Of a stretch of 64,000 bases of DNA, positions 56,639 to 64,000 are shown piece after piece. Position 1 is the stretch's first letter. Every line of letters begins with the position of its first letter. The position numbers were made by a program, and so were the translations under genes. Below the pieces are notes generated by a model, which did no database searches, was not told the DNA's origin, and saw nothing but the letters and a program-made list of their open reading frames with translations. Source of the DNA: Lophium mytilinum (taxonomy: Eukaryota); NCBI GenBank assembly GCA_010093605.1, contig MU004192.1, positions 1,755,464 through 1,819,463 on the forward strand, given 5' to 3'.

Positions 56639-56810
56639 TCCCACTGGCAACAGTAGGCAGCATCCCGTCGACAACGGCAGGCAAGGGTCCCATCGACGAC
56701 GGAAGATGGCAAATATCCCATCATCAATGACAGGCAAAGCCCTATTGGCAATAATAGGTAGATATCCCATCGGCAACGACAGGCCGATCCCACCAACCAT
56801 GGTAGGCAGA
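56639..56810 (+). repeat. Array A: 7 degenerate ~24-bp units TCCCAT-NN-GCAA-NNNN-AGGCAGA
   Basis: For example TCCCACTGGCAACAGTAGGCAG and TCCCATCGGCAACGACAGGCCGA. Confidence 0.8.
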
Positions 56811-56825
56811 TTTCAGCTCCGCCAA

Positions 56826-57728
56826 TCACTCCTCTACTGGCTCATCCTCAAACTCCGCACCAGGGTCCCAAAAACTGAGATCTTCCTGGAGCCATTCCGG
56901 GTCGTCATCTTTCACCGGGTCCATGGCCATTGTTTTCCGAATGAGCGCAGTTTCCCCACCCAGGAGCTCGATGGTTCGGACAAGATCCTCAATTTCCTGG
57001 TTTTGTGTTTGAACCATCTTCTCCCTGCGCCTCAGCTCTAGCCCTGCCTCCCGCCCAACCTCATGCCACCGTTTCAGGCTCTCGAGCCTAGCGGCGGCCC
57101 GGTTCCTTGCCTGATCCCGCTGGTGTCGTAGGCGGCGGATGACCTCCGAAGCTTGGGCGCCCTCAGCCTGGGTATCGAACGTCTCGTCCTCTGTAAGCGC
57201 TTGAAGCTGTCCTGGAACGGTGTTAGCAGTTTTGCGAGAGAAGGGAGGAGATGAATTACCCTTATGATATTCACGCTCCCGCTCGAGATCATCAATCCTG
57301 GAGTCCTTCGCTTCTGTCACAGCTTTGACGCGCGCATCAGATATCATCTGCGACAGCTTGTCGTTCGCTGCTCCTATTCGACTACTCGTCGAATCAGAAG
57401 AATCTATCTTCTCTCTTAAGCCCTCCAAAAGCACTAACTGGCGCTCGGCTTCATCCTCTAGCAGCCGGATCTTCTGTTCCGCGCTGAACTTCTCCTCGGC
57501 TCGGAGACTGACCATACTGTAGTCATCGAAAACATTCCTAATCGACCTGACATTTTCATCGACGGCGCGAGGTCGGGATCCCTTGGCGTTGCGATTCGAC
57601 ATGGTGGCGTTTTTGCGATGTTGGTACATGTTTTCAACCTCCCAATTCAAGTATTCGTAGCGACAATGCCAAGCCGGAAAGTTGATTCGCCGTGCCGAAC
57701 CGAGCCGACCATAATGGAAGTGCATCAC
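56826..57728 (-). CDS. Orphan coiled-coil protein (start uncertain)
   Basis: 300-aa open frame with heptad-like charged stretches (KIRLLEDEAERQLVLLEGLREKI) and an acidic C-terminus. Confidence 0.5.
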   Translation of the reverse strand: MMHFHYGRLGSARRINFPAWHCRYEYLNWEVENMYQHRKNATMSNRNAKGSRPRAVDENVRSIRNVFDDYSMVSLRAEEKFSAEQKIRLLEDEAERQLVLLEGLREKIDSSDSTSSRIGAANDKLSQMISDARVKAVTEAKDSRIDDLEREREYHKGNSSPPFSRKTANTVPGQLQALTEDETFDTQAEGAQASEVIRRLRHQRDQARNRAAARLESLKRWHEVGREAGLELRRREKMVQTQNQEIEDLVRTIELLGGETALIRKTMAMDPVKDDDPEWLQEDLSFWDPGAEFEDEPVEE

Positions 57729-57735
57729 ATGGGTG

Positions 57736-60243: not shown

Positions 60244-60279
60244 AATATCCAAAAAACGCTCCTCGGCGAACTCATTCCA

Positions 60280-61251
60280 TCAAAGGGGAACCCAATAACC
60301 ACGATTCCTCCACGGAAGCTCAGGATCCCCGCCGGGAAGAACGAGCAAATATTCCCCTTCCTCCTTTTCTGTCCCATCTTGCTCCCTCTCCGCTTCTATC
60401 ACGACGCATGGTCGGGTTTTGCAAGCGACGCATGCTCGTTTTCGCTCCAAGCCCTCGGTCCACACCACAGGCGCCCTCCTGAGCGAAAGACTACCAAGGC
60501 ACCGGCCTCTCTTCTCCTCCGATATCAGCCATGGAGGCGTCCTGTCAGCTTTGAACTGGAGGTTTATGGCGTTGTTTAGCCAATCCTTATCCTTTTCGTC
60601 CAGTGCGCTGATATCCCTCTCCTTGCCTTCTCGCACAAGCAACCTCCTCGGAAGCTTATCAAAGACCTTTTGGTCAATCCTACGACCTGGAATGGCAACC
60701 TTGAGGGGCGGAGTGGTTCCGCTCGGCGTCTCCAGAGTGGGCGCGTCTGGCTGCGGGGATAGGCGTCCTGGACTGCTACAAAGACCTGAGTTAGCAACGC
60801 CAAACAGGATTAAGTGGCAGACCTACCTCGTCCTTGTCCTTCTCCTACTGCGCTTTGCTGGACGCCCCTCCGCGCCCTCCTCGGTCTCACTGTCATCATC
60901 TTCCAACAATTGCCCCATTGTTGGGCGAGGCGAGCTCGTACTTGCAGCCCCGAACGGTCTCTGCCCCACAAACGTACTGCCCCTGCGAGATCGCTCGCTA
61001 GTACCCTGTCCGCCTCGGACAGTCCTGTTGTGCAGTAAGCTCGAACCAGGGAGTGGGGCGCTCGAACGCTGCTCTGCGTTATGAGCCAGCTCCATAACTT
61101 GCCTGAGATGACTCGACGCTATCATGCGTGCCACTCGAGGGTGACATGCGGTCCTCATCCCCGCCAGCACGAAGCGGCGCACTCGGTCCTTGTCCTCATC
61201 AGCCGTCGGCTCCATGCTGATGTGTTGGTTGGTTGGCGTTGAACGAGCCAC
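60280..61251 (-). pseudogene. Fragmented orphan gene with C-terminal ACVACKTRPC motif
   Basis: Consecutive minus-strand ORFs in different frames; candidate 41-nt intron 60826-60786 with CTAAC branch site. Confidence 0.35.
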
Positions 61252-61429
61252 GCCCAGAATACGCAGAGAAGTAAAATGTGAGTTTAATCACGTGTTCAGG
61301 CTTGGCGCCGCACGGGACGTTATCGACTCAATTTCGCAACGCCTTCCCTTCCTTATCCACGGCCATCATGTGGTCCCAAATTACAAGGATAGAGATGTCA
61401 TCCTTGCCGCCGCAGCGGGAAAGAGGGGT

Positions 61430-64000
61430 AATTAGACCTAGAGTTAGAAGGATCAGGGCATAGTTAGCTGTGCGGAACAGCCTTAAGACTAGAAACTAAT
61501 TACTAATCCTAATAAAGATAATCTTCTATATATAGCTAGGCAGGTAGCTTATATACTAGGCCTAATTTAGAGTAGATTAAATAACCCTAATAGATCTATA
61601 GAGGCTAGAATATAAGTCTAGTTACTATAGTGCGTACTATTATTATAGAAGCTTTATAAGGGTTATTCTACTATATTTCCGCAGTAATAATTATAGCTTA
61701 CTAGTAATTATAATTATCTACTACTACTATATAGACCCTAAGAGGCTATTCTAATATACTATAGATAAAATAAGTTCTAGTTCCCCGCTAGTACTAAATT
61801 CTAAATAGTATAGATATGCAACTCTTACGCCCTTTAAGTAGCCTGCTAATATAAGTAGTAGTTAATCTATTTAAATTAATCTTAGTTTAATAATTAAATT
61901 TTTTATTTTAGTTATAATTAAAGCCTTTCCTTAGTATATTTTCTAGCTAGATTCTATTAGTATTATTAATAATATAGAGTAGGGCTTTAAAAGTATTAAT
62001 AGATAGTAAAGATTTATAGTACTATAAAGGTTTAGTTTTTTCTAGTCTATATAAGATTCTACTCTAGAAGCTATTCTAGGTCCTTCTCTTCTAACGTGCG
62101 GTAATATTTAATCTGCGTATTAAAGAATAAATAAGTAAACTTACTTATACTTAATAATAGTTTATTAGTATATATAATTATAGAAGCTTTATATTTCTTA
62201 ACTAACTCTAAATCTTCTAACTAGATGCGTCTTAATAGTATACTTTTAATAACCTAAATAGCCTAACTCTATATTACTATAACGCCTAGGCTCTTAGTAT
62301 TCTATATCTATATTTTTATTATAGAAGAATTTATTAGGTATATTCTAATAGTTCTAAGTAAAGAGGTTGTAATAATATATTATAAAAGGAAATAATAATA
62401 GCTGCAGTCTAAGAAGAGAAGATATAGTAAGATAATAGAATACTAGATAGAAATATAGATTAAGCTAGTTATAGACTAAGAGTAATAACCTTATTAAGAC
62501 TTCTAAAGTAATAATCTATAAGTTATATTTACCTATTAAGTAGTAATTTAGTACTGCTAATTAAACCGCCGGCCTTCTTACTTATACTAAGGCGCGGTTA
62601 CTCTAATAAAGAAATTATATAGCTATTTTAGAAAATATAGCTTAACTATAAAATTAAAGAATAGGTAAGAACTAAGATATAAATTATAATATTTATAGAG
62701 GAAACTTGCACTAGAAGAAAACTATTAAGGAAATATATAAATTTAAGGTAAGATCCCGCTAACTATAGTAGGCAGGTCCTATTAGTAATAATAGATAGAT
62801 ATTCTATTAGTAATAATAGAGAGATTTCTATTAGTAATAATAGGCAAATTCTATTAGTAATAATAGGTAGAATCCCGTCGGTAATAATAGGTAGAATTCT
62901 ATTAGTAATAATAGGTAAAAAATCCTATTAATAAGAATAGGCAAATATAGCTTACTAGGGGCCCGTTTTTAGACGCCGCCTTACTCTAGCTATCTAGAGC
63001 TCTAACTTGCTAGGGCTAATATCTATAGCCTCTAAAGATTAAATAAGATAATTTAATATAGTAAAACGGGCTAAGAACTTACTTTAGACCTCCCTCTATA
63101 AGTTCTTAATCTCCTTCTAACGCTAGACTACCTAAGCTTCTAGCTTAGCATAGCGCTTTATAATACGTAAGCCCTCCGCATTAAGATTTACTTTAAAAGG
63201 CGTAAACTTTAACATCTACTTATAGAACTTAGCCTATTAGAACTTATTAATACTATTAATACTATTATTATTTAGCCCGGCAGGATAATAATAAAAGCTA
63301 CTACCTCTACTAATATTAGTATTAGTAAGCCTAGTAAATAAAATCTCTCTAAATATAGATTACTTCCTAGATACTATAAGAAAAATTAAAAAGTTTCTTA
63401 TATAATACTTATTCTTAAAAAGGTAAATATATACTACCTCTATAAGATATATAAGGTAATTTAAGCTAGAATGCGCATTATACTACTACTTGCGCTTTAT
63501 TATATTCTTAGCGTACCTAATATACTATAGTAGTAGAAATAGAGGACTCTCTATATCCTCTATAAGACTCTATATCTTTATTCTTACCTTAAGATTATTA
63601 TAAAATCTAACTAAGATATTCTAGCGCAATAAATTCCCTTAATTAGTATTACAACTAAAATAATAATATTTCCTAGACTATATCTTAGCCTTTATTATTT
63701 CTAAGCTAATAGCATTATTAATTTAATAGGCGGTAATCTAATTAAATAAGCTATTTCTAAGATAGCTTCTTAATAAAGCTATTACGCGCATAAGCTTATC
63801 TAGTATAGGCAAGTTACTGCTAGCATCTACTAAAATCTAATTATAAATTACTAGTTACTAACTAGACCGGCTATAGAGTAGATTAATAGACTAAACTATA
63901 TTCTCTTTACTAGAGAAATATATATAGGTAAGGTTGCCGCCTATAATTTTCTAGAGAACTAATAGATATACTACTATAAGAATCTACTAGGTAGCCTGCA
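61430..64000. mobile_element. Heavily RIP-mutated repetitive block (family unassignable; runs off the window end)
   Basis: Abrupt switch to AT-rich, TpA-saturated sequence depleted in CpA/TpG; no ORFs. Confidence 0.75.
62754..62945 (+). repeat. Array D: ~8 RIP-converted units of the same motif
   Basis: TTCTATTAGTAATAATAGGTAGA equals TCCCATCGGCAACGACAGGCAGA after C>T/G>A changes only; one partly intact unit TCCCGTCGGTAATAATAGGTAG. Confidence 0.8.

Follow-up and report, generated by a model that had tools for sequence, protein, structure and literature searches.

The distal part of the 64-kb stretch of Lophium mytilinum DNA analysed here (referred to below as the window) raises a question: what is a short sequence that recurs in four tandem arrays, two of them directly behind the stop codons of annotated genes? 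Is it a simple minisatellite, the end of a mobile element, or a structured part of the transcripts of the adjoining genes? The data come from a single locus in a single genome.

Four arrays of a covarying hairpin

The preliminary description of this locus held that a motif of ~24 bp forms four separate arrays. A search with the skeleton TCCCAT-NN-GCAA-NNNN-AGGCAGA (up to 3 mismatches) bore this out, since it gave 14 matches in 64 kb against a mean of 0.15 and a maximum of 2 in shuffled sequences, and all 14 were inside the arrays (56639-56810 (+), 58735-58852 (-), 60144-60241 (+) and 62873-62895 (+)). The RIP-converted form of the motif, TCTATTAGTAATAATAGG, was found 9 times (0.05 expected); eight matches lie in 62778-62941, which together with the RIP indices agrees with the earlier account of array D as RIP-converted, and the ninth is unit A5, which has a RIP-mutated look inside the otherwise unmutated array A. 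Tandem Repeats Finder reported periods of 23-25 at arrays B, C and D, and a scan for structure only (CCT, any 4-bp upper stem, a 4-nt loop, GGG) returned 10 hits, all in arrays A-C, with 0.37 expected. Neither the skeleton nor the structural scan found further copies in the remaining 57 kb of the window. The copies are arranged head-to-tail with a unit of 23-25 nt, and 23 units could be aligned without gaps. Arrays A and B are inverted relative to each other and bracket ~1.9 kb; in array C, units C3 and C4 have an identical stem, from which C2 differs at pair 1. The coordinates of the features are collected in Table 1.

Table 1 Arrays, adjoining genes, introns and RIP-mutated DNA in the distal part of the window
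Feature	Position	Strand	Description
Array A	56639..56811	hairpin-sense strand (-)	7 units: 6 regular (A1, A2, A4-A7) and irregular A3 (~56688-56715)
Array B	58735..58852	hairpin-sense strand (+)	5 units; inverted relative to array A, collinear with A1-A5
Array C	60120..60243	hairpin-sense strand (-)	degenerate unit (60120-60143), C1 and copies C2-C4, period 25
Array D	62754..62946	hairpin-sense strand (-)	8 units, RIP-converted from A/B type; without partner array
Gene A	56826..57725	-	coiled-coil orphan BU16DRAFT_592122; annotated model starts at 57602
"Gene B"	57736..58726	+	broken unannotated ORF: 3 in-frame stops and 1 frameshift
Gene C	60280..61215	-	orphan BU16DRAFT_619945, 294 aa; predicted 51-nt intron 60776-60826
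Minus-strand intron, 389 nt	58835..59223	-	GTAAGC...CTAAC...ACAG; acceptor is the CAG/GCA block of unit B1
Plus-strand intron, 60 nt	60078..60137	+	GTACGC...CTAAC...CCAG; acceptor is the CAG/GCA block in the degenerate first unit of array C
RIP-mutated block	61441..64000		holds array D

The positions that had been described as variable spacers proved to be the two complementary arms of a 7-bp stem closed by a 4-nt loop, so that every unit is a hairpin. On the gene-sense strand (minus for array A), the unit reads UCUG-CCUGUCG-UUGC-CGAUGGG-A; its constant features are the CC/GG clamp, the U.G wobble at pair 3, the loop and the UCUG leader, whereas the upper stem of four pairs is free to change provided that pairing is kept. 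Among the 161 stem cells of the 23 units, 92.5% are paired on the gene-sense strand, and only 32-51% are paired when the partner is slid. The covariation score was 0.585, compared with 0.295 +/- 0.031 in shuffles, none of 500 of which reached the observed value. The 15 units of arrays A-C, which lie outside RIP-mutated DNA, carry 10 distinct upper stems, whose own arms pair at 36 of 40 positions; the arms of other units pair at a mean of 2.43 of 4, and 0 of 20,000 permutations reached the own-arm count. Own-arm pairing and the covariation score are at odds with a slippage minisatellite with random variants. The upper stem of array C differs from that of A and B by flips at pair 6 (C-G/U-A to G-C/A-U) and pair 7 (G-C/A-U to C-G), which are transversions and therefore beyond what RIP can make.

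The preliminary description had interpreted the units as iterated protein-binding sites rather than a slippage minisatellite. The units are indeed structured and do not form a plain slippage repeat, but their covariation argues against sites for a binder of double-stranded DNA, because the arm sequences differ between units and yet remain complementary, whereas half-sites would stay constant. A covarying hairpin points to a single-stranded fold, most likely of RNA. A covariance-model search of 56000-63200 on both strands against Rfam 15 yielded no matches at E values up to 1.

The two strands are not equivalent in their ability to fold. Paired stem cells amount to 100 of 105 on the gene-sense strand (79 Watson-Crick and 21 G.U) versus 83 of 105 on the opposite strand, and the minimum-energy fold of a single unit is the exact 7-bp hairpin in 10 of 15 units in the gene sense versus 1 of 15 on the opposite strand. 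The corresponding RNA fold z values are -2.9 versus -0.6 for array A, -2.3 versus -0.9 for array B and -3.4 versus -1.5 for array C; under DNA energy parameters, the asymmetry is nearly gone in arrays B and C. It arises mostly from two inherited positions: 14 of the 15 units have T.G at pair 3, and 7 have G.T at pair 4. Of the five sporadic mismatches, four (in A2, A5, B2 and C2) are C.A when read in the gene sense and correspond to G.T on the opposite strand.

Adjoining genes and transcription across the arrays

The spacing between stop codon and array is ~15 nt for array A (stop 56826-56828, minus), 8-9 nt for array B (58724-58726, plus) and 36-38 nt for array C (60280-60282, minus), matching the ~15, 9 and 36 bp given previously. 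The three ORFs are mutually unrelated outside the arrays, as had also been proposed. The island between the RIP-mutated blocks contains just two annotated genes, A and C, and arrays follow both stops in the same relative orientation. Relatives of gene A in the protein collections come only from Mytilinidion. Its 48-nt intron (57212-57259) is spliced in RNA; the predicted intron of "gene B" (57941-57989) is spliced in none of the RNA contigs listed, and no splicing of the predicted gene C intron was seen in the RNA contigs.

Are the arrays transcribed? Run X1 has the properties of RNA: it covers the gene at 51865-54014 and leaves the RIP blocks uncovered, and it lacks a 48-nt minus-strand intron, in agreement with protein P0001. 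RNA contig 3 spans 56656-57210, is contiguous with spliced gene A and runs across array A behind the stop. The gene A contig ends at 56656, within the outermost unit of array A as seen from the gene; no cover was recorded in bins 56071-56537, and in the gene sense the array gives way to an A/U-rich stretch. The cover also passes unbroken through array B; between 58836 and 56656 the contigs leave no gap, the minus-strand intron has been removed and the predicted plus-strand intron is retained. The spliced RNAs that cross arrays B and C do so in the sense opposite to that of the hairpins and neighboring genes; the joint of the 389-nt intron has only 27 nt on the shorter side of the RNA contig, and that of the 60-nt intron has 66 nt. 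For array B, the sole spliced RNA evidence is thus for the strand opposite to the hairpin sense, where folding is poor. All of these contigs give neither strand, true 3' ends nor single molecules.

The earlier statement that three arrays each lie 3' of a gene in the same orientation therefore has to be narrowed. It stands for arrays A and C, which follow annotated genes, and falls for array B, which follows a broken ORF; with "gene B" not live and arrays B and C both traversed by spliced RNAs of opposite sense, a constant position at a gene 3' end holds for two arrays and not for three.

RIP and the question of a mobile element

The earlier description had further attributed the arrays to a large mobile element with several genes, now being degraded by RIP. 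This attribution was not upheld: the TpA/ApT ratio is 1.66 in the DNA of array D and 0.66 in the island (56.0-61.4 kb), which is not RIP-mutated, and the other scanned ORFs are ordinary chromosomal genes. Array D alone among the four lies in RIP-mutated DNA. A search for a gene next to it had been proposed, and RIP-tolerant comparison of its flanks with genes A, B and C, together with Pfam, gave no likeness, no domain signal and no recognizable gene.

The Pfam scan comprised 39 proteins from window ORFs, covering 26 of the 37 stop-to-stop ORFs of at least 180 aa; ORFs below 180 aa were scanned only within 56-61.5 kb, and none of this shorter class was taken between ~1 and 54 kb. No recombinase, transposase or reverse transcriptase was found among these scanned ORFs. 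A Starship was rejected, as no DUF3435 tyrosine-recombinase "captain" occurs among the 39 proteins, a result that refers to DNA within the 64 kb only. Helitrons have a Rep-helicase gene, 5'-TC and 3'-CTRR ends and one subterminal hairpin; no Rep or helicase domain was present among the scanned window ORFs, and the units end in CAGA rather than CTRR, so this candidate was rejected as well.

With respect to elements with terminal inverted repeats or of the Foldback type, only the A/B pair is inverted at both ends of a segment. Arrays A and B could accordingly be read as the inverted subterminal arrays of a non-autonomous DNA transposon of 2.2 kb (56639-58852; En/Spm or Foldback type), with C and D as remnants of other copies. 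The inverted, collinear arrangement around ~1.9 kb and the position of array D in RIP-mutated, formerly repeated DNA fit this scenario, and strand-specific folding would in principle also be compatible with a hairpin of single-stranded DNA. We consider it distinctly unlikely: inspection by eye of the outer flanks of A and B revealed neither a terminal inverted repeat beyond the units nor a direct repeat of 2-9 bp that would mark a target-site duplication, and no transposase or Rep-helicase domain was detected, either in the island and RIP blocks or elsewhere among the scanned ORFs. Moreover, C and D lack an inverted partner, no more copies exist in the remainder of the window (57 kb), the enclosed genes are orphans present as single copies in the protein collections, the fold of B and C under DNA parameters is barely better than that of shuffles, and covarying arms are unexpected for sites bound as double-stranded DNA.

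In En/Spm, 12-mers that bind TnpA form subterminal repeats, and Foldback elements carry inverted tandem arrays. The likeness lies in short-motif arrays inverted at both ends of a 2.2-kb segment, and the locus differs in the lack of a terminal repeat, target duplication and transposase, in the unpaired arrays C and D and in units that covary as hairpins.

A candidate 3'UTR platform and its alternatives

The interpretation that we favour, although we regard it as possible rather than probable, is that the arrays act as a 3'UTR hairpin platform for a putative RNA-binding factor. It draws on the covariation of the stems, the strand asymmetry, the RNA contig that joins array A to spliced gene A and the location of two arrays next to annotated stops. 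Four to eight hairpins in tandem would make up the 3'UTR of lineage-restricted genes wholly or for the most part, immediately after the stop, and would serve as a multivalent docking platform, through which the factor might set mRNA stability, location or translation; folding in vivo would be a prerequisite. The module would have spread at the DNA level by duplication, with A and B as an inverted duplicate and D once in repeated sequence. Array B without a live gene, array C crossed by plus-strand spliced RNA next to a gene whose own intron was not seen spliced, array D in RIP-mutated DNA without a recognizable gene, a strand asymmetry that depends mostly on two inherited positions and the lack of an Rfam match weigh against this interpretation.

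Could the same structure be maintained without any function? Template switching within quasi-palindromes is a mutational mechanism that can maintain palindromes, and a selfish or neutral structured minisatellite, spreading by slippage, duplication and unit exchange and merely located in transcribed DNA, would keep its palindrome by mutation and not by selection. Units C3 and C4 share a stem that C2 nearly matches, which suggests a recent expansion of the three; arrays A and B represent a single array copied in inverted orientation, array D is within duplicated DNA hit by RIP, and the RIP-like unit A5 amid unmutated units suggests exchange between arrays. The compensated pairs are also loop-proximal, as template switching would produce. 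However, correction by template switching should perfect pairs 3 and 4, whereas T.G persists at pair 3 in 14 of 15 units across 10 upper stems; loop inversion is never seen, the top-strand loop CAA being kept in most units, and two arrays adjoin the stops of the island's only two annotated genes. On balance, we judge this explanation somewhat unlikely. A minus-strand transcript running through array B in the opposite sense and ending past array A in the gene sense could instead form a long imperfect duplex around gene A, acting as an RNA-silencing trigger or as a 5'-3' panhandle controlling this gene. The continuous contigs with the minus-strand intron spliced and the canonical signals of that intron are in line with such an RNA, as are the predicted duplex energy (-125.7 kcal/mol versus -56.0 +/- 5.8 in shuffles) and the value of -155.1 for arrays A and B folded together versus -82.4 alone. 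It is nevertheless very unlikely in our view, because the contigs carry no strand or single-molecule information, the joint at array B depends on 27 nt, and arrays C and D and the covariation within units are left unexplained. Still less probable is a portable module of 3'-end formation or termination, in which the array or a co-travelling sequence would end RNA polymerase II transcripts and give young ORFs a 3' end. The end of the gene A contig in the most distal unit followed by uncovered bins, the A/U-rich stretch and the stops of genes A and C just before the arrays agree with it, but array A is itself transcribed and thus is not an upstream terminator, RNA cover passes array B unbroken, contig ends are not mapped poly(A) sites and no terminator-type RNA family of Rfam 15 was matched.

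Among known systems, bacteria offer well-known cases of iterated, covarying hairpins that immediately follow stop codons; searches of titles and abstracts found no description of them behind the stops of fungal nuclear genes. REP/BIME sequences are bacterial repetitive extragenic palindromes mobilized by RAYT transposases (TnpA-REP), and the likeness includes short imperfect palindromes with strand-specific mismatches that cluster past stops and are transcribed as the tail of the upstream message. The differences are a eukaryotic nuclear locus in a fungal host, 18-nt hairpins arranged head-to-tail in one orientation per array, and mRNAs that are spliced and presumably polyadenylated. No RAYT-like or HUH-type gene was found among the scanned window ORFs, and a two-unit hairpin pattern had 0 matches in the prokaryote genome collection. 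The integron attC site, a single imperfect palindrome 3' of each bacterial gene cassette that acts as single-stranded DNA with the integrase, is similar in its strand-specific fold, its fixed orientation relative to the ORF and its location at the gene 3' end, but here there are arrays, no recombinase was found and the genes lie in both orientations. Stem-loop arrays of MS2, PP7 and boxB are engineered into 3'UTRs for mRNA tethering and imaging; they share with the present arrays tandem small hairpins with a fixed loop and a stem of the 7-bp class directly behind the stop, forming there a multivalent protein platform, whereas the arrays described here are natural, their stems are diversified by compensatory change and their binder is putative.

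A broader possibility, which we consider unlikely, is that the arrays are a eukaryotic counterpart of bacterial extragenic palindromes, namely, a portable, lineage-specific hairpin module on the 3' ends of young genes, read by a dedicated RNA-binding factor via the loop, the U.G wobble and the leader; such a module would place a group of orphan genes under a single factor and supply new genes with a 3'UTR from the outset. If the arrays are only a structured selfish repeat, they would still illustrate compensatory change clearly in a eukaryotic tandem repeat and would call for caution when genes are annotated in islands flanked by RIP-mutated DNA. If they are read as RNA, they would represent a new cis-regulatory module pointing to a putative RNA-binding factor, and would bear on how lineage-restricted genes gain working 3' ends.

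Hairpin units in the four arrays

With up to three mismatches allowed, 14 matches to the skeleton TCCCAT-NN-GCAA-NNNN-AGGCAGA were found in the window (shuffled sequences: mean 0.15, largest 2), and every one lies within the four arrays of the preliminary description, which are therefore real. The RIP-converted skeleton gave nine matches against 0.05 expected, eight in array D and one corresponding to unit A5. Tandem Repeats Finder returned array periods of 23-25 nt; as these are not multiples of three, a coding repeat was ruled out. Read in register, the unit consists of a 4-nt loop within a 7-bp stem, flanked on one side by a fixed 4-nt block, with the sequence TCTG-CCTGTCG-TTGC-CGATGGG-A on the gene-sense strand, that is, the strand sense to the neighbouring ORFs. 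A structural scan blind to stem sequence revealed 10 hairpins (0.37 expected), all within arrays A-C, and no unit standing alone in the remaining 57 kb of the window.

Features of the arrays and their surroundings (window positions; for arrays, the gene-sense strand is given)
Feature	Position	Strand	Characteristics
155-aa ORF	49085-49552	plus	four 34-aa repeats with KR (Kex2-type) sites between them
RIP-mutated 1.7-kb block	54317-56028		bounded by a 33-nt inverted repeat, 88% complementary
Array A	56639-56811	minus	
Gene A	56826-57725	minus	matches Lophium mytilinum protein BU16DRAFT_592122
"Gene B"	57736-58726	plus	three in-frame stops and one frameshift
347-codon ORF	57781-58824	minus	uninterrupted, Pro/Ser/Arg-rich, antisense to "gene B"; start within array B
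Array B	58735-58852	plus	
Intron	58835-59223	minus	contig joint, only 27 nt on the shorter side
Intron	60078-60137	plus	contig joint, 66 nt on the shorter side
Array C	60120-60243	minus	
Gene C	60280-61215	minus	BU16DRAFT_619945, 294 aa
Array D	62754-62946	minus	

Array B is inverted relative to array A and matches it in order, unit by unit (B1-B5 versus A1-A5, about 70% identity); the two thus derive from one ancestral array that was duplicated. Array D is of the A/B type, RIP-converted and without a partner array. In the otherwise unmutated array A, unit A5 (56741-56763) shows, compared with B5, about five C-to-T or G-to-A changes and is similar to the RIP-converted units found in array D, which suggests either an exchange of units between arrays or local RIP leakage.

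Outside the window, metagenome matches to the two-unit pattern were found at nine loci, all of them false positives representing 12-nt CCCAGGCACAA-type repeats without the hairpin. There were no matches to the pattern in viral contigs, to a stricter pattern in prokaryote genomes or to Rfam, and nothing similar was found in the literature at the level of abstracts.

Stem covariation and the strand of the fold

In a gap-free alignment of 23 units, which excluded the irregular A3 (about 56688-56715) and array C's degenerate first unit (60120-60143), 92.5% of the 161 stem cells were standard pairs on the gene-sense strand. The covariation score was 0.585, compared with 0.295 +/- 0.031 in shuffles (reached by none of 500), and pairing fell to 32-51% when the partner arm was slid out of register. 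Because RIP is symmetric on palindromes, little weight can be given to array D or to "compensation" by transitions only, and the counts were therefore redone with arrays A-C alone (15 units). These contain 10 distinct upper stems (pairs 4-7), whose own arms pair at 36 of 40 positions while the arms of other units average 2.43 of 4; the own-arm total was reached by none of 20,000 permutations, whether or not G.U was counted. Moreover, at pairs 6 and 7 the stems of array C are flipped by transversions relative to those of A and B, a kind of change of which RIP is incapable.

Binding sites of Zn2Cys6 / AflR-type dimers (TCG-N5-CGA) were ruled out, as the half-sites differ between units yet stay complementary. 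Single units are also unlikely substrates for RNase III / Dicer, their stems being just 7 bp.

As to which strand folds, the pairing and modelled folding measures favour the gene-sense strand, folded as RNA. As a counterpoint, the strand asymmetry comes mainly from two inherited positions, pair 3 (T.G in 14 of 15 units) and pair 4 (G.T in 7 of 15), and four of the five sporadic mismatches (A2, A5, B2, C2) are C.A on the gene-sense strand and G.T on the opposite one.

Pairing and folding of the two strands (energies are minimum free energies; imposed-structure energies for strands with C.A pairs fell below the minimum free energy and were discarded as unreliable)
Measure	Gene-sense strand	Opposite strand
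Cells paired, arrays A-C	100/105 (79 Watson-Crick, 21 G.U)	83/105
Single-unit minimum-energy fold exactly the hairpin	10/15	1/15
Array RNA fold z (A, B, C)	-2.9, -2.3, -3.4	-0.6, -0.9, -1.5
Array fold z with DNA energies (A, B, C)	-2.8, -1.4, -1.9	-1.2, -0.8, -1.7
Array A with flanks	-80.5 kcal/mol, z -4.1	-53.0 kcal/mol, z -1.1

Genes, RIP blocks and transcripts

The 94% figure for the match of gene A to its annotated protein is due to a 48-nt intron; among 1.84 billion protein representatives, the sole other protein related to it comes from Mytilinidion resinicola (BDZ99DRAFT_467522, 43% identity), and the ESM Atlas gave coiled-coil-like matches only. For gene C, BU16DRAFT_619945 was the sole match in the 99-315 residue range, and a weak ESM Atlas lead to DUF3716 (score 0.81) was dropped, having no Pfam support at E up to 10. 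A search over 119-380 residues gave no match for the broken ORF "gene B", and its individual pieces are all absent from the protein collection. The 347-codon ORF, which lies on the strand favoured by the spliced RNA evidence, is likewise absent from the collection. No Pfam family was found for any of these four ORFs. Genes A, B and C have nothing in common outside the arrays.

The window is fungal, and the island holding arrays A-C (56.0-61.4 kb) is set between AT-rich, RIP-mutated blocks at 54.3-56.0 kb and 61.4-64.0 kb (window end), with TpA/ApT ratios of 1.70 and 1.66, respectively, versus 0.66 in the island and 0.74 in the rest of the window. In C/T- and G/A-collapsed alignments, neither block matched the island above shuffled controls; the two blocks matched neither each other nor the rest of the window, and six-frame read-through of both yielded no Pfam family. 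The flanks of array D accordingly lack both RIP-tolerant likeness to the island and Pfam signal. The block at 54317-56028, unrelated to the right-hand one, is probably a dead terminal-inverted-repeat transposon.

Beyond the island genes, 26 of the 37 stop-to-stop ORFs of at least 180 aa were scanned. They are chromosomal genes of ordinary kinds (Dus3, amidase, an AflR-like regulator, P450, MFAP1, YIF1, NUBP, O-methyltransferase, UstYa-like proteins, HET and hydrolases), and none of them encodes a recombinase, transposase or reverse transcriptase. Together with the low TpA/ApT ratio of the island, this leaves the proposed large mobile element in RIP decay unsupported. The 155-aa repeat ORF adjoins two UstYa-like ORFs and an O-methyltransferase (44855-45601, 46918-47511 and 42507-43232, all minus) and is apparently the precursor gene of a ustiloxin/dikaritin-type fungal ribosomal peptide cluster.

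RNA data were contigs of one sequencing run, which give no strand, ends, poly(A) sites, level or single molecules; stretches without contig cover were not counted as evidence. The run behaves as a transcriptome: the gene at 51865-54014 is covered, both RIP blocks are bare, and the minus-strand intron of gene A is spliced. A single contig starting at 58364 extends through gene A and into array A, ending at 56656 within the array's most distal unit; therefore, at least 170 nt past the gene A stop, nearly all of it array, are transcribed contiguously with gene A. Contig cover is unbroken over 56656-61604. The loose end of one contig at 58335 is a 24-nt G run, probably a library artefact.

Both introns joined by contigs outside gene A have a canonical donor, CTAAC branch and acceptor. 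The acceptors, at 58835 and 60137, each coincide with a unit's conserved CAG|GCA block, in opposite sense, and their branch points are located immediately outside the array, at 19-24 nt upstream. Thus, spliced RNAs cross arrays B and C in opposite sense. The introns predicted for "gene B" and gene C were not seen spliced in the contigs. The gene-terminal signal of the preliminary description is accordingly supported in part: genes A and C and the RNA over array A speak for it, while the broken "gene B" and the opposite-sense RNAs over B and C speak against it.

Possible roles of the arrays

A selfish or neutral structured minisatellite is a rather unlikely alternative to a functional hairpin array. 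The stems of C3 and C4 are identical and C2 differs at pair 1, and these three units seem to have arisen by recent expansion. That the arrays are ends of a non-autonomous transposon is improbable; the outer edges of A and B show neither a terminal repeat nor a target duplication. Slightly less probable still is an inverted-repeat RNA duplex of array B with array A. Co-folded, the two reach -155.1 kcal/mol versus -82.4 kcal/mol folded apart, and one minus-strand RNA spanning both, if real, could form a long imperfect duplex. A portable 3'-end module seems the least probable.

The closest known layout is that of the bacterial REP/BIME class, which the locus resembles in layout without being a member. 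As the best explanation, held tentatively, we suggest that the tandem RNA hairpin array would form the 3'UTR of lineage-restricted genes and serve as a multivalent site for a putative RNA-binding factor, which may recognise the fixed loop, the U.G wobble and the leader.
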